A DNA stretch of 64,000 bases from an uncultured Bacilli bacterium. Lineage in GTDB: Bacteria > Bacillota_I > Bacilli_A > RF39 > UBA660. The position numbers and the translations under genes are program-made. The stretch covers positions 180,229-244,228 of the forward strand of contig CAKOLL010000001.1 of assembly GCA_934096295.1 (NCBI GenBank). The letters run 5' to 3'. This document shows, piece by piece, positions 12,625 to 52,906 of this stretch. The notes beneath the pieces are model-generated. The model saw nothing but the letters and a program-made list of their open reading frames with translations, did not search any database and was not told where the DNA came from. How positions within the stretch are numbered: position 1 is the first letter of the stretch; every line of letters starts with the position of its first letter.

Positions 12625-14181
12625 TTAATTACTTTCTGTATATTCTGTAGGTTCGTATACAGTACCAGCAAACCAAACGTCTTTTGTGTTTTTATCACGA
12701 ATTAAGAACATAAATGGTTTATCAAATGTTATATCTATTTCTTTAACTGGTACTTTGTAAATATAGTCAAATCCACAAGATGTATCTCCGGCTCCTCCCC
12801 CTTCGGTAGCAGCAGCAGCTTTTATTCCTTCATTCGAAAATTCAATATTTGCTTTATGTTTTATTTCACTTATGTATGCGCTTTTGTCACTTGTTAAATT
12901 TAGTAAAGAGGCATGAGCTGGTTCAAAAACATTTTTTATACCTAAATCTTTTAAATTATTTTTTAAGTCTAGGGCATATTCAAACTTATAAAGAGGTATT
13001 AAACCACGAATACTTGTAATTACACCTTTTTCAAAATTATTTAGTTCAATAGCTTTTAATTTAGAGATATAATCATTTAATTTATCTTTATCTGTGTTTT
13101 TTATAAAACTATCTAAAGATTCAGTTCTAGGCATAAATGCTATATATTCTAATGATAGTTCATTATAATCTTTTAATTCTTTTTGAAAAACTTTAATATT
13201 ATCATCAATATAGAATGTGTAGTCTGTTGATGTTGCAACATCTTTATAGTTCTTATATATTTCTTTTATATAATTATCTAAGAATGTTTTAGTATCTTCA
13301 TACGTACTTTGGTCACAATAGTCATGACTAACCCATTCTTCATATTTTTCACCGACGAAATCTCTGATATTTTGTTCTCCGAGTTCACCAACAATATCAT
13401 AATTGTTAATTGCTGAACCTATTTCTACGGCATTTACTTCTTTATCATTAAATTTCAACTTACTGTAAACATCATCCATTATTGGCCCAATATACATAGC
13501 ATATTCTTCATGGGCATAACTTACTCCGAAATCCATTCCAGTATATGAGTGCTTTTCATCAAAGAATTCTTTGCCATTTATAGGTTGAATTGGATTTTTC
13601 CATTCCATATCAATAGCTAGAGCATTAATTAGTAAGAAATTTAGGTCTGAGACATCTTCGAGTAAATTTGGAATCAAACCAAAAGTCTTATTTTTAACCC
13701 ATTTATTAACGTTATCTGGAGTTTTAAAGGCATCATATATAATTTCGGCATTACAATTATCTTTTAATAATTTAATGTAGGAATCTTTAACACTCTTTTT
13801 ATATGAATCTTTAATAAACATGGAATTAGCAAGAGATGCATTCATAGTATTTGTATATTTTTTAGCTTGGAAATTACCTAAAACATTTTCTATTTCCGTG
13901 TGGGCATTATCTGTTGTGGCATCACTAAGCATACTTAAAGCATATTTTATGGAAAGCGGACTATAAACGATATTTTTATTTTTTCCACCAGTTTTCATAA
14001 AGTATAAATCAAATGCACTTAAAGCATTATCATTTATTTTATATGCTGAGTTATTATTAACAACTGATGTATCAAATTTATCATTTTTATTTTTAGTTAG
14101 TAATAAATATATAACTAAAGCAATTAATAAACTTAGCACAATACTTGATATAATTATTATTTTCTTTTTATTCTTTTTCAT
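12625..14181 (-). CDS. Serpin family serine protease inhibitor with N-terminal membrane anchor or signal
   Basis: 518 aa. N-terminal TM (IIIISSIVLSLLIALVIYLLL). Serpin N-terminal signature IVYSPLSIKYALSMLSDATTDN and breach region FLLINALAIDMEWKNP. Reactive-centre loop and hinge EGIKAAAATEGGGAG, then C-terminal FDKPFMFLIRDKNTKDVWFAGTVYEP. Confidence 0.8.
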   Translation of the reverse strand: MKKNKKKIIIISSIVLSLLIALVIYLLLTKNKNDKFDTSVVNNNSAYKINDNALSAFDLYFMKTGGKNKNIVYSPLSIKYALSMLSDATTDNAHTEIENVLGNFQAKKYTNTMNASLANSMFIKDSYKKSVKDSYIKLLKDNCNAEIIYDAFKTPDNVNKWVKNKTFGLIPNLLEDVSDLNFLLINALAIDMEWKNPIQPINGKEFFDEKHSYTGMDFGVSYAHEEYAMYIGPIMDDVYSKLKFNDKEVNAVEIGSAINNYDIVGELGEQNIRDFVGEKYEEWVSHDYCDQSTYEDTKTFLDNYIKEIYKNYKDVATSTDYTFYIDDNIKVFQKELKDYNELSLEYIAFMPRTESLDSFIKNTDKDKLNDYISKLKAIELNNFEKGVITSIRGLIPLYKFEYALDLKNNLKDLGIKNVFEPAHASLLNLTSDKSAYISEIKHKANIEFSNEGIKAAAATEGGGAGDTSCGFDYIYKVPVKEIDITFDKPFMFLIRDKNTKDVWFAGTVYEPTEYTESN

Positions 14182-19583: not shown

Positions 19584-21989
19584 TTATTTAAGACGTTTAA
19601 GAATACTTTCATCTAAAATAATTGTTTTTCCGAATGTTGTTTGATATGTATCTAGGCATTTTTTTATAAAAGTTATACCTCTTTGGATACGTGTTGATGC
19701 AGCACTTAAATTTATATTCAAGCTTAATGCAATATCTTCGGTAGAATATTTTGTCCCATCAACCAGCCCAAAATATAACATGAATGGTTTGCGTATTTCA
19801 TCAGGCATAACATTAACCAAATCATAATAAACTTGGCTTACTTCTTCTTTTGTTTTAGTATTATTACTCTTAGTAATGTCTTTATTAATATCTTGCATCC
19901 TTTTTTCATCCAATCTTTTTTGCAAACCTTTTATTAATAACATTAAGTTCTTACTTTCATGTACATTTAATTGATTTAGATAAGGTTGATCTAAATTTTC
20001 TCCGAAAGCTTTTTTTAGCAATAAGTTTTCTTGTATCTCTGGGATTGATTCAATCTCACATTCTAAAATTTCATTTAATTTTTTTCGTAAGAACGGAGTC
20101 GGTTCATTAACTTTTCGACGAAGTGATGTGATATTATTATAAAAGTATGTTTTATCTTTTTCATCCATATTTGTTAAATCAGCATCTAAGTCAAAGTTTG
20201 AGCCATAATATTTAATAAGCATTTGATAAAATTTTGTATCCTTGTTTAAAGAATTTATAATAATACTTAATTCTTCGATAGTTACATTTAATAACTCCCA
20301 CAAGGCTTTTCTTTTACTTTTTTTCTTTGCCTCAGCTTTTTCAAGCGGAGTATTATTTTGACTTGGCCAAAAATTCACTCTTTTCATTCGATATTTCCAT
20401 CTAGTTAATTTATCATGAAATAATGTTTTTTCATATTTTGAAAGTAAATTATAGTTACATTTATCTGTTCCTTCTTTTCCAAAAGCTTTTACCATTATTT
20501 GATAAATTATAGTACTTTTATCTTGAGTTTCCCAGAGAAATTTAATTCTTTTACACATTTCTTCATATTCTAAAGTTTCTTTATTATAATCATTTAAAAA
20601 TTCTATTAGTGTTTTACAATATTTTTGGTCTTCTTGTTCTTTAATACACTTATAATATTTTGCTAACATCTTATCAATAACAAGTTTAATGTCTTTTTGA
20701 TTAAATTTACTTGGAACTACTTTCAAAGTCAAATTATTTCCAAAATTTTTGTATAGTATATTTTGAGCAGATGATTCTTGCTGTAAAACTAAGGCATATA
20801 TATCTTCTTCTTTTAAAGGTAAATACTCTAACAAAGATATTTTTATTACTTTTGAACAAGCACGCATTTTTTCCAAAGCTTTTTTCTCTTTTTGACGAAT
20901 TGTTTCTCTGGTTACATTATATATTTTGCTAACTTCTTCTAGAGTTTTATTTTCAATAAATCTTAATGTTATTATTTTTCTTTCTTCATCATTTAAACAT
21001 GATAGTAATTGATTTAATGTTAATATATTTATTGAGTCATCTTCAAATTCTCCGGATTTTAGAAATTGATACATACTAGAATTTTCATGTTCTTCGGGAT
21101 TTAAAGGAGCATCTAGAGATATATTTTCTGAAAAAGTCATTAACAACTTAGATAAGGCATCAGTTTCCATATGTAAAAAAGATGCAATTTCTTCTAGAGA
21201 TGGTTCTTTATCTAACTTATAAGATAAAATTTTTAATGCTTCAAGGTATTTATTATAAATTATATGTTGATTAATTGGGATTCTTATTGTTCTTCCTTTA
21301 TTTAAAATAGCTCTATTTATATATTGTCTTACCCAATATGTGGCATATGTACTAAATAAAAATCCTAAAGATGCGTTATATTTTTCCATTGCTTTAATCA
21401 TACCTATGGTTCCTTCATTTATTAAATCTAATTTTTCTAAGCCACAATTTAAATGTTTATTTGCAATAGATACAATTAATCTTAAATTCCCTTCGATAAC
21501 TTGATTTTGATAAAAAATATACTTTTTTTGATAATACTCTTTTTCTTCTTTTGAGATAGCTTTTTCATATAGTTCTTTATATTCTTGAAACTTAATTACA
21601 TATGCTATAGATGTTTCTCTTTTCATCGTGGGAATGTCACTTAGTTCTTTGAAAAACAAATTATCAGCACTTAAGTTTGCTGTTTCTTCAAATGTGTAAT
21701 TTAAATTGTCTTCTAAAAGTATATTTTTAATACTGGCATAAACATAGATGATTCCTCCGTTTATATCTCCGAATCTTTTATAGATTTCATCTTCCGTATA
21801 TTTATTTTTTCCTCGTAAGAGTTGGGCAAAATAGTTATCAATTATTGAACTTTTTTCTAACGCTTTAAGCATAAATGTAAAAATATCTTCAACCTTATTT
21901 TCAGTTAAGATGGAATTTATATAACTTAATTTTATATTACTTGTTTCTATTTTAGATTCAATATCTTTTATAATATTATCAAAATCCAT
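19584..21989 (-). CDS. Giant sigma-70 family protein: a sigma-A-like core with about 430 aa of C-terminal repeat modules and a second terminal HTH
   Basis: 801 aa. Region 1.2-like segment (DNLFFKELSDIPTMKRETSIAYVIKF). Region 2 (EGNLRLIVSIANKH...DLINEGTIGMIKAMEKY...FSTYATYWVRQYINRAI...RTIRIP). Region 3. Region 4 (ITLRFIENKTLEEVSKIYNVTRETIRQKEKKALEKMR). Then repeated KNFGNNL, KAFGKEG, KYYGSNFD, KAFGENLD modules. Terminal LYFGLVDGTKYSTEDIALSLNINLSAASTRIQRG is region-4-like. Confidence 0.75.
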   Translation of the reverse strand: MDFDNIIKDIESKIETSNIKLSYINSILTENKVEDIFTFMLKALEKSSIIDNYFAQLLRGKNKYTEDEIYKRFGDINGGIIYVYASIKNILLEDNLNYTFEETANLSADNLFFKELSDIPTMKRETSIAYVIKFQEYKELYEKAISKEEKEYYQKKYIFYQNQVIEGNLRLIVSIANKHLNCGLEKLDLINEGTIGMIKAMEKYNASLGFLFSTYATYWVRQYINRAILNKGRTIRIPINQHIIYNKYLEALKILSYKLDKEPSLEEIASFLHMETDALSKLLMTFSENISLDAPLNPEEHENSSMYQFLKSGEFEDDSINILTLNQLLSCLNDEERKIITLRFIENKTLEEVSKIYNVTRETIRQKEKKALEKMRACSKVIKISLLEYLPLKEEDIYALVLQQESSAQNILYKNFGNNLTLKVVPSKFNQKDIKLVIDKMLAKYYKCIKEQEDQKYCKTLIEFLNDYNKETLEYEEMCKRIKFLWETQDKSTIIYQIMVKAFGKEGTDKCNYNLLSKYEKTLFHDKLTRWKYRMKRVNFWPSQNNTPLEKAEAKKKSKRKALWELLNVTIEELSIIINSLNKDTKFYQMLIKYYGSNFDLDADLTNMDEKDKTYFYNNITSLRRKVNEPTPFLRKKLNEILECEIESIPEIQENLLLKKAFGENLDQPYLNQLNVHESKNLMLLIKGLQKRLDEKRMQDINKDITKSNNTKTKEEVSQVYYDLVNVMPDEIRKPFMLYFGLVDGTKYSTEDIALSLNINLSAASTRIQRGITFIKKCLDTYQTTFGKTIILDESILKRLK

Positions 21990-24715: not shown

Positions 24716-26833
24716 TTATTTATTAGTTATGATAAATTTATTATCTTTTATATCTACTATTAGAGTTGTACCAACTTTCATATTTTCATCAATTAATTTA
24801 TGAGCTATTAAGTTTTCAATATTTTTAGTAATATATCTTTTTATTGGACGAGCTCCATATCTTGGGTCGTATGCTTCTTCAATAATTTTTTCTCTAACAG
24901 TATTTGTTATTTCTACACGAATGTAATTTTGTTGTAATCTATCATTTAATTCTTTAATAACTTTATCAACTATTTCCCCAATTACATTTTGTTTTAGAGA
25001 ATTAAAGACAATTATTTCATCAATTCTGTTAATTAATTCTGGTCTAAATGTATTTTTAAGTTCATTCATAACAAGTTCATTAGCATTAGTTTCATTATCT
25101 AAAATATATTCACTACCTAGATTACTTGTCATGATTATAATTGTATTTTTAAAATCAACTAAACGTCCTTGACTATCTGTAAGTCTTCCATCATCTAGTA
25201 TTTGAAGCAAAATATTAAAGACATCTTTGTGAGCTTTTTCTATTTCATCAAATAAGACAATACTATATGGATTTCTTCTTACAGCTTCGGTAAGTTCTCC
25301 GCCTTCGTCATATCCAACGTATCCTGGAGGAGCTCCGATTAAACGTGAAACATTAAAGCTTTCCATATATTCAGAACAGTCAATTCTTATCATGTGTCTT
25401 TCATCATCGAATAATTCATAAGCTAATGATTTAGCAACCTCAGTTTTACCTACCCCGGTTGGGCCCAAGAATATGAATGAACCAATTGGTTTATTTGGAT
25501 CTTTAATTCCACTTCTTGCTCTGATAATTGCTTCACTAACAAGTTTTAATGCATTATCTTGACCTATAACACGAGCTTTTAATCTATCAAATAGATGTAA
25601 TAATTTATCTTTTTCACTACTTACTAGTTTTGATACTGGAATATGTGTCCATCTAGAAATAATGCCAGCGATAGATTCTTCATCTACAACATCTGATAAA
25701 ATATTACTCTTGTTTTCTTCTTGAAGTTTCTTTAATTCTTGTTCCAAAGCTGGAATTTTACCATGACGAAGCATTGCACTTTTTTCAAGGTCATAGTTGT
25801 TTTCAGCTTGTGCTAAAGCAAATTTAGCTTGTTCAAGTTCTTCCTTTTTCTTATTTATTTCGGTTTTTGCTTCTTTTTCGCTTTCCCACTTGCTTCTTAA
25901 ATCAGCTTCTTTTTCTTTCATCGTAACAAGACTTTCATCGATTTCATCAATTCTTTTCTTACTTATTTCATCTTTTTCTTTCTTTAATGCTTGTCTTTCT
26001 ATTTCTAGACTCATTATTTTTCTAGTAAGTTCATCAAGTTCAACAGGCATTGATTCAAGTTGCATTTTGATTGTTGCACAAGCTTCATCCACTAAATCTA
26101 TTGCTTTATCTGGTAAAAATCTATCTGTTATATATCTATCAGATAAAGTTGCTGCAGAAACTAAGGCACTATCTTTTATTGTAACTCCATGAAATATTTC
26201 AAATCTTTCTTTTAGTCCACGAAGAATAGTTATTGTATCTGTAACATTTGGTTCACTTACTAAAACTTTTTGAAATCTTCTTTCTAGAGCTCCATCTTTT
26301 TCAATATACTTACGATATTCATTTAGGGTTGTTGCTCCGATTACATGAATTTCTCCACGTGCTAGCATAGGTTTTAACATATTTGAGACATCCATGGCAC
26401 CATCTGTACCAGAACCTACGATCATGTGTATTTCATCAATAAACATTATGATGTTACCATCTGAATCTTTAATTTCTTTTAAGACTGCTTTTAATCTTTC
26501 TTCAAATTCACCACGATATTTAGCACCCGCTACTAAGGCACCTAAGTCAAGTTCCCAAATTGTCTTATTTTTTAAAGAGCTTGGGATGTCTCCTTTTATA
26601 ATTCTTTGAGCAAGGCCTTCCACTATGGCAGTTTTACCTACCCCAGGTTCCCCGATTAAAACGGGATTATTTTTACTTTTACGAGATAATATTCTAACAA
26701 CATTTCTGATTTCTTCATCTCTACCTATAACTGGGTCAACTTTGTTATCTAAAACATTTTTAGTTATATCTCGCCCATATTTATTTAAAACATCTTTTAA
26801 TTCATCATTGTTTTCAAAGTTCATATTAATCAC
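24716..26833 (-). CDS. clpB: ClpB-type AAA+ disaggregase lacking the N-terminal domain
   Basis: 705 aa starting directly at NBD1 ([39 protein letters not shown]). Coiled-coil middle domain, then NBD2 (GPTGVGKTE, sensor/arginine motifs). About 150 aa shorter than canonical ClpB. Confidence 0.85.
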
Positions 26834-26856
26834 CCTTTCTTAACTTGAACAAATAT

Positions 26857-26885
26857 ATTATAAACCTAAAATTAGCACTTGTCAA
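26857..26885 (-). promoter_or_regulatory. clpB sigma-A promoter (TTGACA-17-TATAAT) overlapping CIRCE
   Basis: Minus-strand TTGACA is the reverse complement of 26880-26885 and lies inside the CIRCE spacer and right arm. TATAAT is the reverse complement of 26857-26862. Confidence 0.6.
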
Positions 26886-26898
26886 GTATAAGTGCTAA
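26872..26898. promoter_or_regulatory. CIRCE element (HrcA operator)
   Basis: TTAGCACTT-GTCAAGTAT-AAGTGCTAA fits the consensus TTAGCACTC-N9-GAGTGCTAA with one mismatch per arm. Located 35 bp upstream of clpB. Confidence 0.75.
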
Positions 26899-26902
26899 TT
26901 AA

Positions 26903-28711
26903 TTATATTTTATATAAAAATATTCTTAAACTATTTAAAATAGATAGTAATGTCACTCCGACATCAGCAAAAACAGCAAGCCAAATCGGAGTTATGCCAA
27001 ATATTGCAAGTATTAACATTATAACTTTAAAGGAAATTGCAAATGTAATATTAGTAATTACTGTTTTTCTAGTTATCTTACTTATTTTCAAGACTTTACT
27101 TATGCATTCTAAATTGTCTTCCATTAAAACTATATCACTGGCTTCAATTGTGGCATCACTACCTAGACCCCCCATTGCAATACCAACATTGGCAAGTCTT
27201 ATTACTGGAACATCGTTGATACCATCACCTACAAAAGCAACATTATTATTCTTCTTATATTCTTCTAGTATTTTTACTTTATCTTCTGGTAGTAAATTTC
27301 CAAAACTTTGATCAATTTTAAGATTTTTAGATATTTCACTCACTACACTTGCATCATCACCAGATAACATGACTATATTTTTTATACCATTTTCTTTTAG
27401 TTCTTGTAGTGATTTTTTAGCATTATCTTTAATTTTGTCACTAATTACAATATAACCTAAATACTCTTTATTTTTAGCAACATGAATTATTGTACCTAAT
27501 TCATTTGTTTCTTCTGGCGTTATTTTATTATCCTCTAATAATAATTTAGAGCCCACTAGAATTTTATCTTTTTTTATTTTACATTCTATTCCTTTGCCAC
27601 TTATTTCTTTATAATTTGTTACTTTAGCAAGGGTTTTATTATAGGAACTTTTTATTGATTTAGCTATCGGGTGATTAGAATGGGTTTCTGATGATGCTGC
27701 TAGATATAATAATTCATCTTTAGAACAATTTATATTTTTTATCTTAACAACTTCAAATACCCCTTCTGTAATCGTACCTGTTTTATCAAATATTATTGTA
27801 TCAATCTTATTTAAGTTATCCATTACATCACTACCCTTTACAAGTATTTTTTCTTTACTGGATTTACCAATTGATGTAAAGTAACTAAGGGGTACCGAAA
27901 TAACTAAAGCACATGGGCATGATATTACAAGCATTTCCAAAGCTCTATATACCCAAGTGGTGAAACTTTTTCCTAAAGCTACAGGTATTACTACGACAAG
28001 AATGGCAAGAATAACCACAATCGGAGTATAAATTTTTGAAAACTTTGTAATAAACTTTTCTGTTTTTGTTTTCTTTTCTTCACTATTTTCAATGATTTCA
28101 ATTATTTTACTTGCTGTACTTGTTTCAAATGTTTTAGTAGCTTTTATTTCTAAAACACTATCTAAATTAATTGTTCCACTTAAGACAGTATCATTTAAAT
28201 TAACTTTTCGTGGTACTGATTCTCCGGTTAAACTTTTTGTATCAATATGACTTGTGCCATTAATTATAATCCCATCTAAAGGTATTTTTTCTCCAGGTGC
28301 AACAATAAAAATGTCACCAACTTTAGATTCTTTTACATCTATATAACCTTTATCTTTTATATTTACTTTATCGCTTCTTAAATCCATTAATTCAACGATA
28401 GCTTTTTTAGAATTATCTACCGCTAAATCTGATAAATATTCTCCGATAGAAAATAATAACATTACTAAAACTGCTTCGGGATACTCTTTAATGTAGAATG
28501 CTCCGAGTGTTGCAATAATCATTAAGAAATTTTCATCAAATATTTTACCATTTTTAATGTTTTTAAGAGCATTAAAATATACTTCTTTAGACACAAAAAC
28601 ATAACTAATCACTAAAAGATAAATGTTTTCATTAAAAATCATTCCTAATACAAGAAAAACAATACTAATTATTATTCTTATTAAATCTTCATTAAATTTT
28701 ATCTTTTTCAT
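26903..28711 (-). CDS. cadA: P1B-type heavy-metal (Cd/Zn-type) translocating ATPase without N-terminal HMA domain
   Basis: 602 aa. CPC transmembrane metal site (VISCPCALVISVP), DKTGTIT phosphorylation motif and VAFVGDGINDVPV hinge. Confidence 0.85.
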   Translation of the reverse strand: MKKIKFNEDLIRIIISIVFLVLGMIFNENIYLLVISYVFVSKEVYFNALKNIKNGKIFDENFLMIIATLGAFYIKEYPEAVLVMLLFSIGEYLSDLAVDNSKKAIVELMDLRSDKVNIKDKGYIDVKESKVGDIFIVAPGEKIPLDGIIINGTSHIDTKSLTGESVPRKVNLNDTVLSGTINLDSVLEIKATKTFETSTASKIIEIIENSEEKKTKTEKFITKFSKIYTPIVVILAILVVVIPVALGKSFTTWVYRALEMLVISCPCALVISVPLSYFTSIGKSSKEKILVKGSDVMDNLNKIDTIIFDKTGTITEGVFEVVKIKNINCSKDELLYLAASSETHSNHPIAKSIKSSYNKTLAKVTNYKEISGKGIECKIKKDKILVGSKLLLEDNKITPEETNELGTIIHVAKNKEYLGYIVISDKIKDNAKKSLQELKENGIKNIVMLSGDDASVVSEISKNLKIDQSFGNLLPEDKVKILEEYKKNNNVAFVGDGINDVPVIRLANVGIAMGGLGSDATIEASDIVLMEDNLECISKVLKISKITRKTVITNITFAISFKVIMLILAIFGITPIWLAVFADVGVTLLSILNSLRIFLYKI

Positions 28712-29004
28712 AACTTTATTCCTTCTTTAATATGTTCAAGCCCATATTCAATTATCACTTTAATATGATTATCTGCAATACTATAATAAATTATTTGTCC
28801 TTCTTTTCTTGTTTTAACTAAGTTTGTACTTCTTAAATAACTTAGTTGATGTGACACTGCTGAATTACTCACATTTATTTTATTTGCTATAACACCAACG
28901 GATGTTTCTTCATTTAATAATACTTCAAGTATTCTAAGTCTTGTGGTATCACTAAATACTTTAAAAAATTCACTTAGTTCATTTATTATTTCTACTTTTT
29001 CCAT
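28708..29004 (-). CDS. cadC: ArsR/SmtB family metalloregulator (CadC-like)
   Basis: 98 aa with winged-HTH TTRLRILEVLLNEETSVGVIANKINVSNSAVSHQLSYLR. Translationally coupled to the ATPase. Confidence 0.8.
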   Translation of the reverse strand: MEKVEIINELSEFFKVFSDTTRLRILEVLLNEETSVGVIANKINVSNSAVSHQLSYLRSTNLVKTRKEGQIIYYSIADNHIKVIIEYGLEHIKEGIKL

Positions 29005-29014
29005 TTTATCTCCT

Positions 29015-29040
29015 TATTTGAATATCTGTTCATATATTCA
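29015..29040. promoter_or_regulatory. Candidate CadC/ArsR operator (imperfect inverted repeat)
   Basis: TGAATAT-ctgttcat-ATATTCA immediately upstream of the cadC RBS. Confidence 0.4.
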
Positions 29041-29109
29041 TTATACTATTATTAAATTATGAATGCAATTAAAAAAAATCTCATGTCAATGAAATCTTTA
29101 CTTTTTTAA

Positions 29110-29370
29110 TTAACCTGGATATGATAAGTGATTTTTATCAAACCACAATAAATTGAGATTATCACTTTCTCTCCACCCAATTATCCTAAATTTTTGATTA
29201 GCTCTAAATGATACTAAAGTTGCATCTTTAGGAAATATATCTGGAATCGAAACATTAAAGTATCTAGGAGTTTCATAGTTCAATCCTTGATCTATTTTAA
29301 TATCCTTCCATGACATTATTTCTATTTTTTTACAAAAGTTTATAAATGCCTTTAATTCTTTTGGCCCCAA
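29110..29370 (-). CDS. Small hypothetical ORF (86 aa, TTG start, no RBS). Possible toxin partner of the Panacea protein, or a gene remnant.
   Basis: ORF opens with TTG right after an in-frame TGA. C-terminal ...RIIGWRESDNLNLLWFDKNH is loosely RelE/HigB-like. The call is weak. Confidence 0.25.
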   Translation of the reverse strand: MGPKELKAFINFCKKIEIMSWKDIKIDQGLNYETPRYFNVSIPDIFPKDATLVSFRANQKFRIIGWRESDNLNLLWFDKNHLSYPG

Positions 29371-29477
29371 TTTTTCAAGGGGAAATTTATCATGACAATA
29401 TGCAAATTTGATTTTGCATATTTCATCATCTCTAGTTTTAGATAAATTTAAATTTTTAGTTTTTGAATTTACTTTTT

Positions 29478-29942
29478 TTAATTTTCATAATCAATTTTTG
29501 TCTTAAAGAATAATCTCATACTTTCTTTGGAAATAATATTATTGCATGGTTCTCCGTCTTTATGATTACCTCTGGCATCTATCCACGGTTTTTCCATATG
29601 CGTCAAATATTCTAAATATTTTCCGTCATAAATGCCATATGTATTCCAAACGTCATACAAAAAATTGACTAGTTTTTTATCTAAAACTGGTACTTTTCCT
29701 TTAGGCCTATCTATTGCTTGAAAGCCATATTCCTTATATTCAAAATAAATACCTACGTTTGCTGGTCCATGTGCCCATGCTTCAAAATCTTCACTAAAAA
29801 GTTCTTTATCATACATCGCTAAATGATACCCTTGTGCATAATATAATATCTTTTGCAATTTTAATGGTGTAATTGTACTTCCTGCATCTCTATCTACAAT
29901 TTGCAAGAAAAAGTTTGCTATGTCAAATATAGTTAACTTCAT
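29478..29942 (-). CDS. Panacea domain (DUF4065) antitoxin-like, SocA-like phage-associated protein
   Basis: 154 aa. MKLTIFDIANFFL...ITPLKLQKILYYAQGYHLAMYDKELFSEDFEAWAHGP matches the Panacea/DUF4065 signature. Confidence 0.75.
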   Translation of the reverse strand: MKLTIFDIANFFLQIVDRDAGSTITPLKLQKILYYAQGYHLAMYDKELFSEDFEAWAHGPANVGIYFEYKEYGFQAIDRPKGKVPVLDKKLVNFLYDVWNTYGIYDGKYLEYLTHMEKPWIDARGNHKDGEPCNNIISKESMRLFFKTKIDYEN

Positions 29943-31607: not shown

Positions 31608-33791
31608 TTAAATATTTATAGGATTAAAATCTATTTCTATTCTAACTTCTTTATTCATAATAAATAAATTATCTAATTCTTTTAAAACTGTTTTTAAATT
31701 ATCACACTTTTTATATTTTATTATAATTTGCATTCGATATTCATTATTAAATTTAAATACTTGAGCTGTTGTTGGACCTAAAACGATAGCTTCTTCTAGG
31801 CTTTTATCTAAAAATGTTTTTACTTTCTTACTAGCTTCAATTGTTTTATTATAATCTTTACCTATTACTTTTAAACTAACCAAATAGTAATAAGGTGGAT
31901 ATTTCAATTTTTTTCTAAAATTCATTTCATATAAATAAAATTTATCATAACTATTTTCTTTAATGCAATTTATTACATAATTATCAGGATTAAATGTTTG
32001 AATGATTACTTCTCCGGGATATGTACTTCTTCCACTTCGCCCAGCAACTTGATGAAGTAAGGCAAATGTATTTTCACTAGCTTTAAAATTAGGAATATTT
32101 AAAGTGGTATCAGCATTTATTACTCCGACTAAAGTAACTTTTGGAAAGTCTAGTCCTTTACTAATCATTTGAGTTCCAAGTAATATATTATATTTTTCAT
32201 TTTTAAAATCATCGATTATTTTTTCATGTGCACCTTTTCTTCTCGTAGTATCTTGATCCATTCTAACTATTTTAGCTTCTGGTAATAATTCTTTTAACTT
32301 TTCTTCTAATTTTTCAGTTCCGAGGCCATAATAATTCAAAGATTTTTCTTTACACTCTGGACATAATTCTTCACATCTTTGTTGAAAACCACAATAATGA
32401 CATATCAAATTATTTGTTGATTTATGATAAGTTAAGGTTATGTCACAACTTGGACATTTATATGTAAATCCACAATTACTACATGTTATAAAAGTTGAAA
32501 AGCCTCGACGATTTAAAAGTAAAATAACTTGTTCATTTTTAGCAATTTTCTCTTTTATTTTACTAATTAAAAGATCACTAAATATCATGTTTCTTTTTTT
32601 CATTTCTGGTTCCATATCCACCACAGTTATTGTTGGAAGAATAGCTGTTCCTACTCTATTTTTTAAAGTTAGTAATGTAAAGACTCCTTTATCAGCTCTC
32701 GCTTTACTTTCTAAAGATGGTGTTGCACTAGCTAAAACAACGGGAATATTATTATACTTTCCCCGATGCATTGCGATATCTTTAGCATTATATCTAGGAT
32801 TATTATCTTGCTTGTAACTACTGGAATCTTCTTCATCAATTATAATTATACCTAGATTTTTAACCGGAGCAAAAATTGCACTACGAGTACCTACCACAAC
32901 ATGAACCTCACCGCGATAAATTTTTAAATATTCATCATACTTTTCTCCTTCAGATAATGAACTATGTAAAATTGCTACATCACTACCAAAAGTCTCATAA
33001 AATCTCTTAGCAATTTGATGCGTTAAGCTTATTTCGGGAACCAATACTATGCCAGTTTTTCCTTCTTTTATGATACTTTCTATTAATTTTATATATACCT
33101 CAGTTTTTCCTGATCCAGTTATTCCATATAATAAGAATGGTTCAAAGTGATTAAATGATGATTTTACTTTTTCATATACTATCTCTTGATCACTAGTTAA
33201 CGTTTTATTTATATTACTTGTATTTTTATTAATACGATATTTTTGAACCTTTTTTATATCTATTAATTCAAGCTCTATTAAAGTTTTAATGATACTTGAA
33301 CTATAATTTTTCTTTAGTAATTCATTATTATCTAAAACTTGTTTTAAAACTTTTACTTGGGCTTTTCTTTTATTTTCATAGATATTAATATAATCTATTA
33401 CTTTTTTTCTATCTTTTATAATTATATATTCATCATATAAATCATAATTTGATGTATTCTTTTTTACTTTTAGACTTGATGGAAGCATTGTTTGATATGC
33501 AGTTATCATCGTACATAAAGTAGATTCTGATAAATATTTTCCAAGTTCCATTAATTCTTTATTTAAAACTAACTTTTCATCTACGATACTTGAAATATAC
33601 TTAAGTTCGTAAGATGTATCATCACATATATCTATTATTTCCATAATAAAACCTACCACTTGTTGAAATCCAAAAGGTACTAAAACTTTCATTCCGACTT
33701 GAATTTTATCTTGTAAATATTCCGGTATCATATATATAAATTCTTTATCTAATTTTTTTATACTATATTCAATTATTACTTTTGCGTACAT
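31608..33791 (-). CDS. priA: Primosomal protein N' (replication restart helicase PriA)
   Basis: 727 aa. Walker A GITGSGKTEVY, DExx, Cys-rich zinc-binding insert (CSNCGFTYKCPSCD...CHYCGF...CPECK), C-terminal domain. Confidence 0.9.
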   Translation of the reverse strand: MYAKVIIEYSIKKLDKEFIYMIPEYLQDKIQVGMKVLVPFGFQQVVGFIMEIIDICDDTSYELKYISSIVDEKLVLNKELMELGKYLSESTLCTMITAYQTMLPSSLKVKKNTSNYDLYDEYIIIKDRKKVIDYINIYENKRKAQVKVLKQVLDNNELLKKNYSSSIIKTLIELELIDIKKVQKYRINKNTSNINKTLTSDQEIVYEKVKSSFNHFEPFLLYGITGSGKTEVYIKLIESIIKEGKTGIVLVPEISLTHQIAKRFYETFGSDVAILHSSLSEGEKYDEYLKIYRGEVHVVVGTRSAIFAPVKNLGIIIIDEEDSSSYKQDNNPRYNAKDIAMHRGKYNNIPVVLASATPSLESKARADKGVFTLLTLKNRVGTAILPTITVVDMEPEMKKRNMIFSDLLISKIKEKIAKNEQVILLLNRRGFSTFITCSNCGFTYKCPSCDITLTYHKSTNNLICHYCGFQQRCEELCPECKEKSLNYYGLGTEKLEEKLKELLPEAKIVRMDQDTTRRKGAHEKIIDDFKNEKYNILLGTQMISKGLDFPKVTLVGVINADTTLNIPNFKASENTFALLHQVAGRSGRSTYPGEVIIQTFNPDNYVINCIKENSYDKFYLYEMNFRKKLKYPPYYYLVSLKVIGKDYNKTIEASKKVKTFLDKSLEEAIVLGPTTAQVFKFNNEYRMQIIIKYKKCDNLKTVLKELDNLFIMNKEVRIEIDFNPINI

Positions 33792-33821
33792 CTAAGCCTC
33801 CGTATAAAATTCATTTTAACA

Positions 33822-33850
33822 CGAGCAACATAAAAACTCAATAAATTTTA
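33822..33850 (-). terminator. Terminator after rpe
   Basis: ACTCAATAAA-att-TTATTGAGT hairpin plus a T-run on the minus strand. Confidence 0.5.
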
Positions 33851-33856
33851 TTGAGT

Positions 33857-34486
33857 CTATTGTTTTTTTAAACTATTTATTCTACTTTCAAAATCTTTAC
33901 TCATGCATATATATGAGCCTGATATTACGCCATCAGCATTTATAACATCTTTAATAGTTTCATTATTTATACCACCATCAATATATATTTCAAAACCATT
34001 TTCTTTTTTGTATTTTATTAATTCTTGCAATCTGTCTTTAGTGCTATCTAAAAATTTTTGACCACCTTTACCTGGTACTACACTCATTAAAAGAACTCTA
34101 TCTATATAAGGAAAATAATGACTAAATGATTATATTTCTTCATTTGGATTAATAACTAATCCTCTTTTAATTCCATAATTATTAAGTTCATTTAATAGCC
34201 CAAATGCACTTGGTTCAGTGGATGGATGAATGTAGATACAACTAGGTTTTAGTTTTAATAAATCATTTAAATAACCACTTGGTTTACTCACCATCATATG
34301 AATTTCTAAAGGTTTAATATTTTCTTTAAAAAGTATTGGTAAATGATTAATATCAAAATTTTTTGTTCCAGCATATATACCATCCATTAAATCTACATGT
34401 ATAGCATCTGCGCTGGTTTCATTTATTAAATCAATAGTTTTCTTTTGATCATATAAACTATTTATATAACTTACGGTTATTTTCAT
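33857..34486 (-). pseudogene. rpe: Ribulose-phosphate 3-epimerase interrupted by a single in-frame TAA
   Basis: ORF 34130..34486 is Rpe residues 1-118 (AIHVDLMDG..., GLVINPNEEI). ORF 33857..34087 is the Rpe C-terminus (LLMSVVPGKGGQ...YIDGGINNETI...). Both lie in the same frame, separated only by TAA at 34130-34132 (...NPNEEI*SFSHYFPYIDRVLLMSVVPG). Alignment places the stop at a variable position, with no residues missing. Confidence 0.7.
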
Positions 34487-35312
34487 GGCACTCCTTTATA
34501 AATCTAGTATAATTAATATACCTTGAAGGAAGAATTATTCCTTTAGACATTGCTTCGATTACTTTGCAACCTCTTTCTTTTATGTGCATGCAATCTTTAA
34601 AATCACACTCATATTTTTGAAATTCTAAAAACGTTTCTTTTAACTTATCTTTATCAATATTATTTAAGTCTAGCGCTGAAAATCCTGGAGTGTCCACAAA
34701 AAATATTTTACCTATTTTGTATATTTCTGTATGTCTTGTTGTATGAACTCCACGATTTAAAGCCTCACTAATTGGCTTTGTTTCAAGATTTAATCTTTTA
34801 TCTAATTTATTTAATAAACTTGATTTACCTGCCCCAGTTTGACCTGTTAAAACTACAAGTTTATTTTTTAAGATACTTTTTATTTTTCCTAAATGTTTAT
34901 TATCCACAACTTTAATTCCTATACTTTTATAATATTTTATTAGTGGTTTTAAGTTTTTAAACTCATCTTTTGATAACAGATCTAGTTTTGTTAAACAAAT
35001 AACGGGTTCAATGTTATTAGCAAGAATTACACTTAGTTCTTTATCAAGTAGGCTTAATGATAAATCTGGCTTTTTAACACTTGTTACAATTAAAGCCATA
35101 TCAACATTAGCTACAACTGGTCTTTCAAGTTCATTTACTCTAGGTAATATTTCTTCGATTGTTAAAGTAGATTCATCAATTCTTACTATATCACCCACCA
35201 AAGGGGAAAGTCCTAAATTTCTAAACTTTCCCCTAGCACTACAAATATAATCAACCCCATTTACTGTAACTTTATATTGATTACTTATTTGTTTTGTGAT
35301 TCTACCTTCCAT
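34458..35312 (-). CDS. rsgA: Ribosome small-subunit-dependent GTPase A (circularly permuted GTPase, YloQ/CpgA)
   Basis: 284 aa. G4-G1 order (TKLD...GQTGAGKSSLLNKL). C-terminal Zn cluster CDFKDCMHIKERGC. Confidence 0.85.
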   Translation of the reverse strand: MEGRITKQISNQYKVTVNGVDYICSARGKFRNLGLSPLVGDIVRIDESTLTIEEILPRVNELERPVVANVDMALIVTSVKKPDLSLSLLDKELSVILANNIEPVICLTKLDLLSKDEFKNLKPLIKYYKSIGIKVVDNKHLGKIKSILKNKLVVLTGQTGAGKSSLLNKLDKRLNLETKPISEALNRGVHTTRHTEIYKIGKIFFVDTPGFSALDLNNIDKDKLKETFLEFQKYECDFKDCMHIKERGCKVIEAMSKGIILPSRYINYTRFIKECHENNRKLYK

Positions 35313-46773: not shown

Positions 46774-47817
46774 TTATTCATTATCGCTATTATTTTCATT
46801 TAAATATTTATTATAAAATTCATCCATTGAAGAAATGTATTTTTGATCTTGTATAACTCTAAATTTTTCATATTCTTTTTCAGCTTTTTCTACTACTTCT
46901 TTATGTGATATACTGCCACTATTATTTAATACTTCTTTTCTTCTAAACTTTAATAAATCATCAGTTGCATCTATCCATTCTTTCATTGTCATAACATGTC
47001 TTTGTTTTGCTTCATCTTCGGCAAATACTAAAAACATATTTGTTAAATCTTTTAAATTGTTCATTTCTTCTTCGTTTAAATAATTTTTTGCAATAATCAC
47101 ATCATATTTATATATTAAACCATCAGGAGAATTTTTCCAAGTTGTTAATCCCATATGCTCTTCTTTTGAATTAGCCCTTTTAAAAATAAGTTCCGCAGCA
47201 GTATGTCCACTTATAGCATAGTGCAGCTTATTTTGAACTATTTTAAAGAAAGTATAAGCGTCTTCTGATTTTGGATTGTAATCTGCTGCTGTTGCAATAA
47301 ATAAATCAGTGATTTTTTGATATGCCATTCTTTCACTTACTCTGATTGTTTTGATACGTTCTAATAATTCATCAAAATATTTTGCATCATATTTATTTCC
47401 ATTTATAAAACGTTCATCATTTAATGCAAAACCCTTTGTCATATATTCTTTTAATATTTTTGTTGCCCATATTCTAAATTCTGTTGCTTTTTTAGAATTA
47501 ATTCTATAACCCACAGCAATTATAGCATCAAGACTATAAACTTCAGTATTATAGTTTTTTCCGTCAGGTGCAGTTATTTCCATTTTGGAAACAACTGAAT
47601 TTTTATCTAATTCGTTTTCTTCAAATATATTTTTTAAATGTTTTGATATTGCTGGTACACCAACCTCGAAAACTTTTGACATACCTTTTTGTGATAACCA
47701 TAAAGTTTCATCTTTATAAATAGCATCTACTATAATATTACCTTCACTATTTTTATATATAATTAATTTATTATCTTCCATCAATACTCTCCTTTCCTTT
47801 AGTTTTTCATAAGTCAT
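46774..47817 (-). CDS. RhuM family virulence/defence-island protein
   Basis: 347 aa. IIYKNSEGNIIVDAIYKDETLWLSQKGMSKVFEV...YNTEVYSLDAIIAVGYRINSKKATEFRIWATKILKEYMTKGFALNDERF matches the RhuM N-terminal signature. Confidence 0.75.
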   Translation of the reverse strand: MTYEKLKERRVLMEDNKLIIYKNSEGNIIVDAIYKDETLWLSQKGMSKVFEVGVPAISKHLKNIFEENELDKNSVVSKMEITAPDGKNYNTEVYSLDAIIAVGYRINSKKATEFRIWATKILKEYMTKGFALNDERFINGNKYDAKYFDELLERIKTIRVSERMAYQKITDLFIATAADYNPKSEDAYTFFKIVQNKLHYAISGHTAAELIFKRANSKEEHMGLTTWKNSPDGLIYKYDVIIAKNYLNEEEMNNLKDLTNMFLVFAEDEAKQRHVMTMKEWIDATDDLLKFRRKEVLNNSGSISHKEVVEKAEKEYEKFRVIQDQKYISSMDEFYNKYLNENNSDNE

Positions 47818-47912
47818 ACACTTATCAATTTAAATTAAAATTTTATTAAAAAAATGTCCCAAAATGTACAAAGCATTTAGTAAAAATTTCTTTTATTTTC
47901 AAGTATTCAAGT

Positions 47913-48021
47913 GTGTTTTTTCATGACTCCCCACTTACCACGAAACGGAAACCTTTGAAAAACTTTCTTGGCTACCATTATTTTCTTTTCTTGTCTCATT
48001 TTTCTTTTTTGATACATATCC
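47913..48021 (-). pseudogene. Diverged duplicate of the rbgA 5' end (first ~36 codons, a gene remnant)
   Basis: Minus-strand ATGGATATGTATCAAAAAAGAAAA... (MDMYQKRKMRQEKK...GKWGVMKKHT*) parallels the rbgA start ATGAACATGTATCAAAAAAGAAAAG (MNMYQKRKERKEK...INWYPGHMVKAK). 22 of 24 nt are identical at the start, then roughly 65% identity over about 110 bp. Confidence 0.4.
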
Positions 48022-48028
48022 ATTTAAA

Positions 48029-48625
48029 TCACTTTCTTTTTTCAAAATCTAAATCAGTTACACTATATCCAAGTTCTTTTAATTTATTATATATTATACT
48101 AGGAGAAATACCTAATAAAGTATTATAATCACCTTCAATTTTATCTATAAACAGAGATGCTTTACCTAATGGTACAAATCCACAACATTTAAAAATTTTT
48201 TCTTCATTATTTACATACCATTCTATTTCTTCTTCTTTTATTTCATTAAAATACACATCTGCTTTAGAACTTGAACATATAATTTTTTCTTTATATAAAT
48301 CAATTAATGTTATTCCCGTATATGCTGTACATTTATTATTTGACAATTCTTTTAAATTTAAATATGCTTCTTCTTTACTTTTTGGTTTCTCATATATTTT
48401 ATTATTACAATATATAATGGTATCTGCAGAAATAATTATCGCTTTGCTATCAATTTGTTTCTTAACAGATTTAGCTTTATTTAACGAAAGCTCTTCAACA
48501 TATTTATTAGGACTAGTTTTATTACTTTCTTCAGGTTCATTGCTAGTAATAACATCATATTTTAGTCCTATCATATTAAAAATATCTTGTCTTTGTTTTG
48601 AAGACGAAGCTAATATTATTCTCAT
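48029..48625 (-). CDS. maf: Maf-like nucleoside triphosphate pyrophosphatase / septum formation protein
   Basis: 198 aa with the MRIILASSSKQRQDIF N-terminus typical of Maf. Confidence 0.85.
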   Translation of the reverse strand: MRIILASSSKQRQDIFNMIGLKYDVITSNEPEESNKTSPNKYVEELSLNKAKSVKKQIDSKAIIISADTIIYCNNKIYEKPKSKEEAYLNLKELSNNKCTAYTGITLIDLYKEKIICSSSKADVYFNEIKEEEIEWYVNNEEKIFKCCGFVPLGKASLFIDKIEGDYNTLLGISPSIIYNKLKELGYSVTDLDFEKRK

Positions 48626-48730
48626 TTTATACCACCTTTACTTTATTCCTTCAAGTTTCTTATTTTCTTTATTTTCTAATTGTTTCTTTTCTCTTTCTAA
48701 TTCTTTTAAGCTCTTTTTAGATGTTGGCAT

Positions 48731-49026
48731 TTATTCAGGCATCATTCCACCAATATCTGCAATTGCCTTTCTAACTTTTTTTCCTTCACCAGTTCTTATT
48801 GGCTTGTTGATTTCAACACCCCAATCTTCTTCGATTGAAACTCTATTATTTGCAGCTAAAACTGCTTTAGCTATTACTTTTTTGAAAATTTCTCCAATCT
48901 TTGTATTCTAAAACTTTAAAAAGTTCTCTAGCGAACCAATACTCGTTTTTATATTCATCAAAATGTTTTATATTCTCAAAAATATTATTTGTGTATTCTG
49001 TTTCAATTATATCCATTATTACCTCC
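48731..49026 (-). pseudogene. DinD / Bro-N-like small gene with a +1 frameshift in an A6 tract
   Basis: Frame A gives MDIIETEYTNNIFENIKHFDEYKNEYWFARELFKVLEYKDWRNFQKSNS*. Frame B continues ...KKVIAKAVLAANNRVSIEEDWGVEINKPIRTGEGKKVRKAIADIGGMMPE*. The frames join at the T6/A6 homopolymer (48878-48883). Strong RBS GGAGG before the ATG. No ORF-track entry exists because of the frameshift. Confidence 0.4.
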
Positions 49027-49846: not shown

Positions 49847-52800
49847 TTATTGAGAATTTTTTACTCTATGCAATGTGGAATCATAATGTATAGATTCTTT
49901 TGAATTAGTAAATGTTTTATTATAAGCGTTAATAACAGTTTTTATAAAAGTCATACCAGTATCAACTTTTAAAGATACTTCTTCTTCACTTATTCTTAAG
50001 AATTTTGCTATTTGTTTAATAGAATATTTTTCATTAAATATTCCTAGAAATAAATATAATATCAGTTTATAATCTTCTGGCATAAAATCTATTATGACTT
50101 TATAATATTTTTTTAAGTTTTCTGCATCGTTATTAAGGTTCGTTGTTTCTTCTTTTGAGGTTCTGCTTTTTATTTTTTCTTTTAAATTATTTATTTTAAT
50201 TCGAAGAATATTTTTTTCATTTTTGGTAAGATAAGAAGTATCATAAGTTTTAGTAAAATCACTACCAAAAACTTTAACAAATAATGAATATATTTTAGTA
50301 TTTTTACGTTCACTATTAAATATATTTAAAACTTCTTCATAAGTTATACCCAAAATAATATTAAGTGTCTTGCCATCATTTCTGCTTTTTCTGTTTCTTG
50401 TTATATTTTGTCTACTTTTATTGTTTATTCTATTTTTTATTTTTTCTAAGGTTTTAGCTAATACCGCTAAAGAAACATTATTTATAAACTTTAAATCGAG
50501 ATTTTCTCCGAAAGCCTTAGTAAGCACTTCCAAATTTGTAGGGGTTGCTACCAATTTTATATCGCTTAGGCTTTCATTAATTAATTCTTCTAGAGTTTTA
50601 CCTTTATAAATATTATCCTCTTGAGCTATTTTACTTAATATATCAAGCCTTCTTAATAAAAGGGCATAATCGTTTTCAGAGAATTTACTTTTATCAAGGA
50701 ACTCATTTAAATCATTACCAAAAGCTTTATAAAGATCTTCATTTTTATCTAAGGCATTCATAAATCTTTCTGTGTCTTCATATGATAGTCCCAATATTTC
50801 ATTTAATTTTTTAGAATTGAATATATCAGTTTCTTGTTGTTTTTTATCCATAAGTTTACTTATTTTGCTTACTACTTTGCTTTTTTTATCTATTCTTTTT
50901 TTTATTTTTTCTAAGGTTTTAGCTAATATTGCTAAAGAAACATTATTTATAAACTTTAAATCGAGGTTTTCTCCGAAAGCCTTGGTAAGTACTTCCAAAT
51001 TTGTAGGGGTTGCTACCATTTTTATATCGCTTAGGCTTTCATTAATTATCTCTTCTAGAGTTTTACCTTTATAAATATTATCTTCTTTGGCTATTTTACT
51101 TAACATACCAAGTCTTCTTAATAAAACGGCATAATCTTTTTCAGAGAATTTACTTTTATCAAGGAACTCATTTAATTCATTGCCAAAAGCTTTATAAAGC
51201 TCTTCATTTTTATCTAAAGCATTTACAAATCTTATTGTGTCTTCATAGGATAATCTCAACATTTCATTTAATTTTTTAGGACTGAATGTATCTGCTCCTT
51301 GTTCTTTTTTACTCATAAGTTTACTTATCTTGCTTACTACTTTGCTTTTTTCATAATAACTTAAATTATCTAAATTACAAATTCCTTTTCCATCTGGGCC
51401 AAAAGCTTTTATAAATATATTTGATATTGTGTTGTCTTTTCTTGTTAATTCTTTCCATAGTAAATCTATATTATCTAAAGCAAATATTTCATTTAAAGTT
51501 TTGCCACTATACTCTTTACCATAACTTTTGTAATCATTATTAATTATGTTTTTTACTGCTTGTTTTAGATATGTTGCCTCTTTAGAATTCAAATTATCTT
51601 TATAAACTTCATCTAAATTTGGACCAAATGCTTTGTAAAATAAAGTTCTAATATAAGTTGAAACTTTTGCACAATAATCAAAATCATTAACCTTTTCTTT
51701 TCCAATTAAATCTATTAAGGTTTTACCATTTAAAATGATTCTTTCATTTTTTTCACTTTGAATGCTTTTTGTGTTATTTTTCAAGAAATTTTGCATTTTT
51801 CCTAAAGCTTTTTCTTCAATTTGTCTTACTCGTTCTCTAGTCATTTTGTACATTTTGCCAATTTCTTCAAGAGTATAATCTTCTCCATATCTTTTGGTAA
51901 TTATGTCTTTTTCTCGTTCAGTTAAACATTCTAAAAATGTTAATACCGCTGTTTTATTTACAATGGCTTCTTCTAAATTAATTTTATCTGGTACAAAATT
52001 ATAACGATTTGTTTCTGTATCATCTTTTACCTCGGCATCTAAAGATGTTAAAAAGCCAATATTATTTACTAGTTCTTCAATATTAGCACAATCTTCATTC
52101 ATTTCATCTGCTATTTCTTTAATTGATACTTCTCTTCCTAAAGTATTAGTTAATTTTTCCTCAACTTTCATAACTTTTCGGTATTTTTCTTGAACACGGA
52201 CGGGAATTCTTATATTTCTTTCTTTGTTATGAATGCTACGCGTAATCAAAGATTTAATCCAGTAATATGCATAACTTGAAAATGAGGAACCATAACTAAA
52301 ATCATAATAATCAATTGCTTTAGACATACCAAAGAATCCTTCATTAACTAAATCAAGTAATGTCATATCCGTAGATGCTATTTTTTTTGCAATATATACA
52401 ATTAAACGAATATTTCCCTCGATAATTAAATTACGGTATTTATCGCAAATATCTACTTTACCAAGTGATTTAGCTTCTTGATAAATTTTAATATATTTTA
52501 AAGTATCTTCTTTTGATAATATGGGTAAATCCGACATGTCTTTAAAAAACAAATCAACTGAATCTAAAGAATTTATATTTATTTCTTTATAATCAATTAT
52601 TTCTTCTTTAATTAAATTTTTTATTATTCCGTAACTCGTAAGGATATTTCCATTTAGTTCTCCGTACCTTCTAATAAGTTCTTCCTCTGTATATTTTTTA
52701 TTAGAAAAAAAGCTAGATAAATAACTATCTATAGTAGGATTTTCACATAATAATGCCATGAATTTAATACCATTTTCTATATTTTTATCTATTAAAATAT

Positions 52801-52906
52801 TGCTAAAATCTTGTAGGGATATAGTTTTATTATTTATTTTTTCCACTAAAACTTTTATAATTTCTTGCATAACAAACCTCCTGATGAATTTATTATAACA
52901 CGGCAA
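49847..52906 (-). CDS. Giant sigma-70 family protein, paralogue of the 801-aa one. A sigma-A-like core is followed by about 640 aa of C-terminal repeat modules and a terminal HTH.
   Basis: 1019 aa. N-terminal segment is paralogous to the 801-aa protein (IDSYLSSFFSNKKYTEEELIRRYGELNG... against IDNYFAQLLRGKNKYTEDEIYKRFGDING...). Region 2 is EGNIRLIVYIAKK...DLVNEGFFGMSKAIDYY...FSSYAYYWIKSLITRSI...RNIRIPV. Region 4 is TLEEIGKMYKMTRERVRQIEEKALGKM. Many [KY]AFG-x-[ND]L modules follow. Terminal KYSIKQIAKFLRISEEEVSLKVDTGMTF is HTH-like. Confidence 0.75.
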   Translation of the reverse strand: MPCYNKFIRRFVMQEIIKVLVEKINNKTISLQDFSNILIDKNIENGIKFMALLCENPTIDSYLSSFFSNKKYTEEELIRRYGELNGNILTSYGIIKNLIKEEIIDYKEININSLDSVDLFFKDMSDLPILSKEDTLKYIKIYQEAKSLGKVDICDKYRNLIIEGNIRLIVYIAKKIASTDMTLLDLVNEGFFGMSKAIDYYDFSYGSSFSSYAYYWIKSLITRSIHNKERNIRIPVRVQEKYRKVMKVEEKLTNTLGREVSIKEIADEMNEDCANIEELVNNIGFLTSLDAEVKDDTETNRYNFVPDKINLEEAIVNKTAVLTFLECLTEREKDIITKRYGEDYTLEEIGKMYKMTRERVRQIEEKALGKMQNFLKNNTKSIQSEKNERIILNGKTLIDLIGKEKVNDFDYCAKVSTYIRTLFYKAFGPNLDEVYKDNLNSKEATYLKQAVKNIINNDYKSYGKEYSGKTLNEIFALDNIDLLWKELTRKDNTISNIFIKAFGPDGKGICNLDNLSYYEKSKVVSKISKLMSKKEQGADTFSPKKLNEMLRLSYEDTIRFVNALDKNEELYKAFGNELNEFLDKSKFSEKDYAVLLRRLGMLSKIAKEDNIYKGKTLEEIINESLSDIKMVATPTNLEVLTKAFGENLDLKFINNVSLAILAKTLEKIKKRIDKKSKVVSKISKLMDKKQQETDIFNSKKLNEILGLSYEDTERFMNALDKNEDLYKAFGNDLNEFLDKSKFSENDYALLLRRLDILSKIAQEDNIYKGKTLEELINESLSDIKLVATPTNLEVLTKAFGENLDLKFINNVSLAVLAKTLEKIKNRINNKSRQNITRNRKSRNDGKTLNIILGITYEEVLNIFNSERKNTKIYSLFVKVFGSDFTKTYDTSYLTKNEKNILRIKINNLKEKIKSRTSKEETTNLNNDAENLKKYYKVIIDFMPEDYKLILYLFLGIFNEKYSIKQIAKFLRISEEEVSLKVDTGMTFIKTVINAYNKTFTNSKESIHYDSTLHRVKNSQ
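50390..51350. repeat. Near-perfect tandem duplication (2 copies of about 465 bp) inside the 1019-aa sigma gene
   Basis: Two protein repeats of about 155 aa (SKVVSKISKLM[SD]KK...YKAFGN[ED]LNEFLDKSKFSE...TKAFGENLDLKFINNVSLA[IV]LAKTLEKIK) with about 90% identity. Matching DNA strings, e.g. TTTTTCTAAGGTTTTAGCTAATA at about 50441 and about 50906. Antisense ORFs 50370-50609 and 50772-51074 are near-identical. Confidence 0.75.

Follow-up and report, generated by a model that had tools for sequence, protein, structure and literature searches.

The question raised by this locus is whether the single in-frame TAA that interrupts an otherwise intact gene for ribulose-phosphate 3-epimerase (rpe) is a true mutation, a sequencing artefact or a codon that the cell still decodes. 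The gene lies in a stretch of 64,000 nucleotides, hereafter the window (GC content of 26.3%), from an uncultured human-gut Bacilli, 'Tenericutes'-like and with 26% GC. A preliminary description of this DNA had listed three readings, in the order of a very recent nonsense mutation, a sequencing error and stop-codon readthrough. Our data are best explained by the first of them: the interruption is very probably a genuine, very recent and segregating nonsense polymorphism (S119*) in rpe, an ordinary loss-of-function variant that calls for no new coding mechanism.

Translation of the minus strand gives 209 codons and a native TAG, interrupted once at codon 119 (Table 1): 118 residues are followed by the TAA, then by 90 sense codons and the TAG, in agreement with the single stop within an intact frame described before. 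The two open reading frames listed at this place, 34130-34486 (118 aa) and 33857-34087 (76 aa, opened by an internal ATG), are indeed same-frame parts of one Rpe, and the 14 codons between them are open as well: SFSHYFPYIDRVLL. Each half alone matches PF00834, with 63.1 bits (3e-17) for the N-terminal part and 58.3 bits (9e-16) for the C-terminal one. The joined protein reaches 133.5 bits for a cut-off of 21.1 (E = 8e-39), its residues 14-193 lying without a break on positions 14-197 of the 198 of the profile, so that the claim that no residue of Rpe is missing stands.

Table 1. Features of the interrupted rpe gene and its surroundings (positions in the window).
Feature	Position	Strand	Basis
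Complete rpe frame	33857..34486	-	Translation; PF00834 in a single stretch, E = 8e-39; 93% identity to the intact 209-aa homologue P0001
In-frame TAA, codon 119	34130..34132	-	Variable base 34131 = rpe nt 356: A here, C in intact alleles
N-terminal fragment, 118 aa, beta1-beta5 with H30, D32 and H63	34133..34486	-	PF00834, 3e-17; alignment with 2FLI; AlphaFold2 secondary structure of a homologue
C-terminal remainder, predicted untranslated: 90 sense codons and TAG; alpha5, beta6-beta8, D170, phosphate-binding loops	33857..34129	-	PF00834; 2FLI; AlphaFold2
Internal ATG (Met134), start of the 76-aa ORF, without upstream Shine-Dalgarno	34085..34087	-	Comparison with real starts
rsgA, upstream gene; its last 29 nt overlap the rpe start	34458..35312	-	Pfam RsgA_N and RsgA_GTPase in identical loci
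Terminator-like hairpin right after the rpe stop: 11-bp stem, 3-nt loop, then U-run	33834..33858	-	RNA fold

The finer assignment is less direct. The joined Rpe scores 137.2 bits against the NCBIfam equivalog TIGR01163 (cut-off 212.6) and 143.5 against its best NCBIfam match, NF004076 (cut-off 165), and thus stays below all the NCBIfam equivalog cut-offs; the whole Rpe clade of this lineage is divergent. The exact Rpe function is therefore assigned from family membership together with gene context. The order of the genes was found to be PP2C phosphatase, prkC, rsgA and rpe, as expected for the conserved prkC-rsgA-rpe operon that had been reported, with priA downstream of rpe. The hairpin that follows rpe has a dG of -12.9 kcal/mol (z = -3.4) and was missed by a consensus terminator scan because its stem is AT-rich; its location directly 3' of the rpe stop indicates that the operon ends with rpe. 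The statement that this is the only rpe holds for the 64-kb window, where tblastn revealed no second rpe-like sequence.

To establish which state of codon 119 is ancestral, the orthologous codon was compared in the relatives, a check that the preliminary description had proposed. The change from TCA (Ser) to TAA corresponds to one C-to-A transversion at nt 356 of rpe. In eight contigs, obtained from as many samples and from several studies, the 630 nt of the gene are identical except for a C at nt 356, which gives TCA. One of them is a 115-kb contig of 20x coverage from a Hadza gut metagenome (L009), whose sole mismatch to the window in 20,630 nt is nt 356 itself. In the metagenome collection, 11 of 11 contigs have a C at this position, and the two closest species-representative genomes (L020, L021; uncultured Tenericutes bacterium UMGS686 and an uncultured Bacilli bacterium MAG from the Hadza) have TCA. 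The protein search returned hundreds of intact homologues of 209-217 aa, with an identity of up to 93%, in which residue 119 is Ser in the closest clade, Pro in the next one and Glu, Lys, Asp or Leu farther out. The earlier remark that the stop sits at a Ser of E. coli Rpe is in agreement with our alignment to an E. coli sequence. When the joined protein was submitted to an exact-sequence look-up, the version with Ser119 was found (P0121), and those with Leu, Lys, Gln, Glu, Tyr or Pro at residue 119 were absent.

A sense codon is thus present in every relative. Since it is shared by the outgroup lineages and by the DNA-identical twins, TCA is ancestral and TAA derived; the frame is disrupted relative to its intact orthologues and the disruption is the derived state, as expected of a nascent pseudogene or loss-of-function polymorphism. 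The dN/dS against intact relatives is approximately 0.1-0.15 in both halves of the gene, and we therefore conclude that rpe was under purifying selection until the nonsense change. The C-terminal remainder is still equal in sequence to that of the intact alleles, and the absence of any other decay in rpe indicates that the mutation is too young for further decay to have followed. The eight TCA contigs, and the single-base difference over 20.6 kb in one of them, support the first-listed reading of a very recent nonsense mutation. On the sense strand, the same C-to-A change also makes a perfect TATAAT at nt 353-358 (window about 34126-34131, minus), where the intact allele reads TATCAT; given the lack of a good -35 element upstream and the terminator after rpe, its resemblance to a promoter is probably a coincidence.

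A difference of one base in 20.6 kb is also what a faulty consensus would leave, the organism having TCA in reality and the A being an artefact of base calling or assembly. One read set could underlie all the TAA assemblies, and the assemblies of the cohort are troubled at this place: some contigs end, others have N-gaps and one shows a collapse of 34 nt, all at no more than about 25 nt from the stop. Nevertheless, the consensus reads TAA in three distinct contigs obtained with different assemblers and with different start positions, even if their source samples may be the same or related: the source contig of the window, which reaches some 17 kb past the point where the second starts; a 441-kb metaSPAdes scaffold (ERZ28613902, sample SAMEA4765647) with 100% identity to the window over 20.2 kb; and a 57-kb MEGAHIT contig (ERZ27286966). 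Nt 356 stands outside any homopolymer. Furthermore, a Logan contig from run ERR7738584 (L002), 100% identical to the window, ends on the T just before nt 356, and its last 31-mer holds bases specific to the haplotype of the window (haplotype A). A de Bruijn graph that forks into an A and a C path at nt 356 would produce such an end, so that both nt 356 alleles of haplotype A probably coexisted in this run, and a branching exactly at nt 356 implies that k-mers bearing the A recur in a further run. Together with the explanation of the nearby breaks given below, these data make an error unlikely, and the second of the listed readings is accordingly disfavoured.

The breaks themselves deserve attention, because seven contig ends, gaps or collapses fall within about 45 nt of the stop site and contigs that are SNP-free over 13 kb upstream differ from the window only near it. 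Within about 25 nt of the stop we found an N-gap (L018), the 34-nt collapse (L019), a contig start (L035), an N-gap with the 6-nt overlap ATATCA (L042) and a contig end (L048). A second haplotype (haplotype B, 5 contigs) has C at nt 339, G at nt 343 (N115D) and C at nt 356; it is equal to haplotype A for kilobases on both sides of the site, and its downstream SNPs are common to haplotype B, L018 and L019. Because the outgroups carry the state of haplotype B, haplotype A must have gained T339 and A343 first and A356 later. Since the two haplotypes are identical for kilobases around, nt 339, 343 and 356 are their sole differences over several kb and the one place where a mixture of A and B opens bubbles in the assembly graph; their co-occurrence accounts for the nearby breaks. 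The clustering at first made a hotspot of mutation or recombination seem likely; this was rejected, the mixing with haplotype B explaining most of the breaks. The insertion of a mobile element, an idea issued from the ATATCA overlap at the N-gap of L042, was dismissed as well: the contigs end at various points between nt 333 and nt 377, with no foreign sequence there.

Two further variants were seen at this site. The collapse (L019:409-1004) is a deletion of 34 nt, rpe nt 333-366 (window 34121-34154), which spans the stop site between flanking TTAGT direct repeats. It was considered as a second, independent lesion of the gene; being seen in a single contig of 6x coverage, it is probably an assembly collapse, a real frameshift allele being the remaining possibility. 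In another contig (L043:13642-14271, 243 kb, 24x), rpe of haplotype A with an intact Ser119 has a T>G change at nt 353 (window 34134), which gives I118R. This radical change affects the codon that adjoins the nonsense site, where every aligned homologue has Ile, Leu or Val; 2 contigs carry the allele (P0139).

The third reading, in which programmed readthrough, code reassignment or a suppressor tRNA lets TAA-119 be decoded and full-length Rpe still be made, has in its favour the perfectly intact frame downstream of the stop, and the search for a suppressor tRNA covered 64 kb of the genome. An intact downstream frame is nevertheless expected for any very young mutation, and the stop is missing from every relative, the DNA-identical twins included, so that no conserved recoding signal is observed. 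TAA is moreover the main terminator in the window, where the 51 genes end in TAA (36), TGA (9) or TAG (6), and the internal stop stands in the common TAAT context, a tetranucleotide that ends 14 window genes. A six-frame scan for consecutive long stop-to-stop segments revealed no other interrupted gene in the window, as had been claimed; the other same-frame pairs are unrelated neighbouring genes or antisense shadows, as is the case of a plus-strand pair at 47850-48911, which looked like an interrupted gene and is the antisense shadow opposite a Maf gene. With TAA as the main stop and no other interrupted gene, a genome-wide recoding of TAA, previously judged unlikely, is rejected on the evidence of the window (36 of 51 genes ending in TAA). 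No suppressor tRNA is encoded in the 64-kb window, the sole tRNA being Arg-CCG, and no Rfam element was matched at E <= 1 in positions 33500-35000. Readthrough thus finds no support in conservation, nor in an element or suppressor tRNA of the window, and we regard it as very improbable.

To evaluate the consequence of the stop for the enzyme, the joined Rpe was aligned with the S. pyogenes Rpe structure (2FLI, E = 2e-26). H30, D32, H63 and D170 fall on its metal/catalytic residues, and all four are invariant in the clade. For P0001, the homologue with 93% identity, AlphaFold2 predicts (pLDDT 90.7) eight strand-helix units arranged as a (beta/alpha)8 barrel, with strands at residues 2-6, 28-34, 60-65, 83-86, 107-112, 130-134, 166-170 and 186-189 and helix alpha5 at 118-127. 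Residue 119 is located in this model at the start of helix alpha5, ahead of beta6-beta8. The 118-aa product would thus keep beta1-beta5 and be deprived of alpha5, of beta6-beta8 with the fourth metal/catalytic residue D170, and of the Gly-rich phosphate-binding loops (G141-G142, G171-G172 and G190-S191). From the loss of D170, of these loops and of beta6-beta8 it is predicted that the truncated Rpe should be inactive and the cells without Rpe activity. The stop is expected to exert little polarity on other genes, since no gene of the operon lies beyond rpe and its terminator hairpin.

The calling of both fragments as ORFs, and the match of both to PF00834, could also evoke a split enzyme, in which an active barrel is rebuilt from the 118-aa product and a 76-aa piece made by reinitiation. 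This is hardly credible: the internal ATG (34087) has no Shine-Dalgarno sequence, in contrast to rpe (AAGGAG) and priA (GGAGG), a restart at Met134 drops residues 119-133, i.e. helix alpha5 and nearly all of strand beta6, and the split is conserved in no relative.

Taken together, these data are in agreement with a simple sequence of events, which would involve nothing beyond a nonsense polymorphism. One C-to-A transversion has turned Ser119 (TCA) into TAA on haplotype A, and the TAA allele very probably segregates now with the intact allele, in the same strain background, in gut metagenomes from a single cohort (records bearing the labels Hadza or MERR22-1). In cells that carry it, translation would stop after residue 118, leaving the barrel with beta1-beta5 and abolishing the Rpe activity. 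The base change, its derived state, its recurrence in several assemblies and the intact twin allele are observations, and the loss of activity, the lack of polarity and the coexistence of the two alleles in one sample are deductions.

Whether this allele is only passing through the population is a separate matter. It could instead be locally adaptive or held at intermediate frequency, TCA and TAA being toggled by mutation and reversion and maintained within and between the hosts of one population. Stop-codon gain and reversion (the adaptive-reversion model) have been proposed for gut bacteria, reportedly without having yet been directly observed in gut microbiomes, and within-host adaptive mutations are reported to be enriched in premature stops (PMC11379459). 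The presence of both alleles on an otherwise identical (clonal) background, their likely coexistence in one sample and the radical I118R change (nt 353 T>G) in the adjacent codon, within the same cohort and background, would fit such a dynamic. A neutral or mildly deleterious transient variant is nevertheless the simpler account of the same data, and there is one clear loss-of-function allele only, the L019 deletion looking like an assembly collapse; we give an adaptive loss a small chance. If true, the rpe locus would show stop-codon gain and reversion at work in nature.

Outside this genome, the nonsense polymorphism as we propose it has little importance. In annotation, the locus is best described as an rpe pseudogene or a premature-stop allele and not as two genes, and a metabolic reconstruction of the MAG should allow the non-oxidative pentose-phosphate step from Ru5P to Xu5P to vary between strains. 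As the A and C alleles separate otherwise identical genomes, they are a possible marker for strain tracking in the cohort. Should reads show a stable coexistence or a repeated gain and loss, the locus would acquire some modest value as a case of how loss-of-function alleles behave in a gut commensal that has not been cultured.

Several other features were recorded in the window and in the related contigs. The 5' part of a RhuM-family gene (46774-47817, minus) contains a hypervariable patch at about 47338-47776, with at least 3 alleles among contigs otherwise identical over 13 kb and dozens of substitutions and small indels in approximately 440 nt; several assemblies have a start or a break a short way downstream, near 46890. 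Adenine-specific mutagenesis by a DGR seems an unlikely origin, all substitution types being present. Another cluster, of about 80-120 SNPs in 2.2 kb (window about 26575-28777), is common to L010, L018, L019 and L052 in an otherwise near-identical background and lies in the region of a P-type ATPase gene (26903-28711) and an ArsR-like HTH gene (28708-29004); it has the look of a tract acquired by recombination from a diverged lineage. An antitoxin-like gene with a SocA/Panacea domain (29478-29942, minus) is preceded by a gap of about 470 nt without a long ORF (29005-29477), which could hide a small toxin partner or an RNA. A 518-aa protein (12625-14181, minus) matches Pfam Serpin (PF00079), a bacterial serpin in the small AT-rich genome of a gut Bacilli. 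Two very large proteins of 801 aa (19584-21989) and about 1019 aa (49847-52906, minus) have identical or orthologous copies with Pfam matches to Sigma-70 regions 2, 3 and 4, and are unusually long for sigma factors. Finally, priA is called in two pieces in two contigs (56 and 647 aa in L054:3019-5216; 63 and 273 aa in L007:3696-4717), possibly reflecting further disruptions or assembly problems.

Compared with known systems, the gene belongs with the Rpe family, represented for example by the S. pyogenes Rpe (PDB 2FLI), by its PF00834 match, its four conserved residues and the (beta/alpha)8 barrel predicted for its closest intact homologue, and the prkC-rsgA-rpe arrangement is the typical Firmicutes one. 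It departs from the usual Rpe in having the motif MDGIYAGTKNF in place of MDGHFVPNLTF and, in this strain, in being truncated at codon 119. With programmed readthrough or stop reassignment, the only common feature is an in-frame stop inside an otherwise intact frame, whereas here relatives lack the stop, most genes of the window end in TAA, and neither a stimulatory element nor a suppressor tRNA was found in the window. The case fits among the de novo premature stops of gut commensals. Within their hosts, such bacteria, Bacteroides fragilis for example, frequently acquire premature stops by new mutation, and the stop-adjacent codons are typically TCA and TTA (PMC11379459). The rpe allele shares with them the one-base hit on a stop-adjacent TCA, in a gene under long-term purifying selection, and the persistence of the intact allele in near-identical genomes; it differs in that the organism is uncultured and the evidence comes from assemblies.
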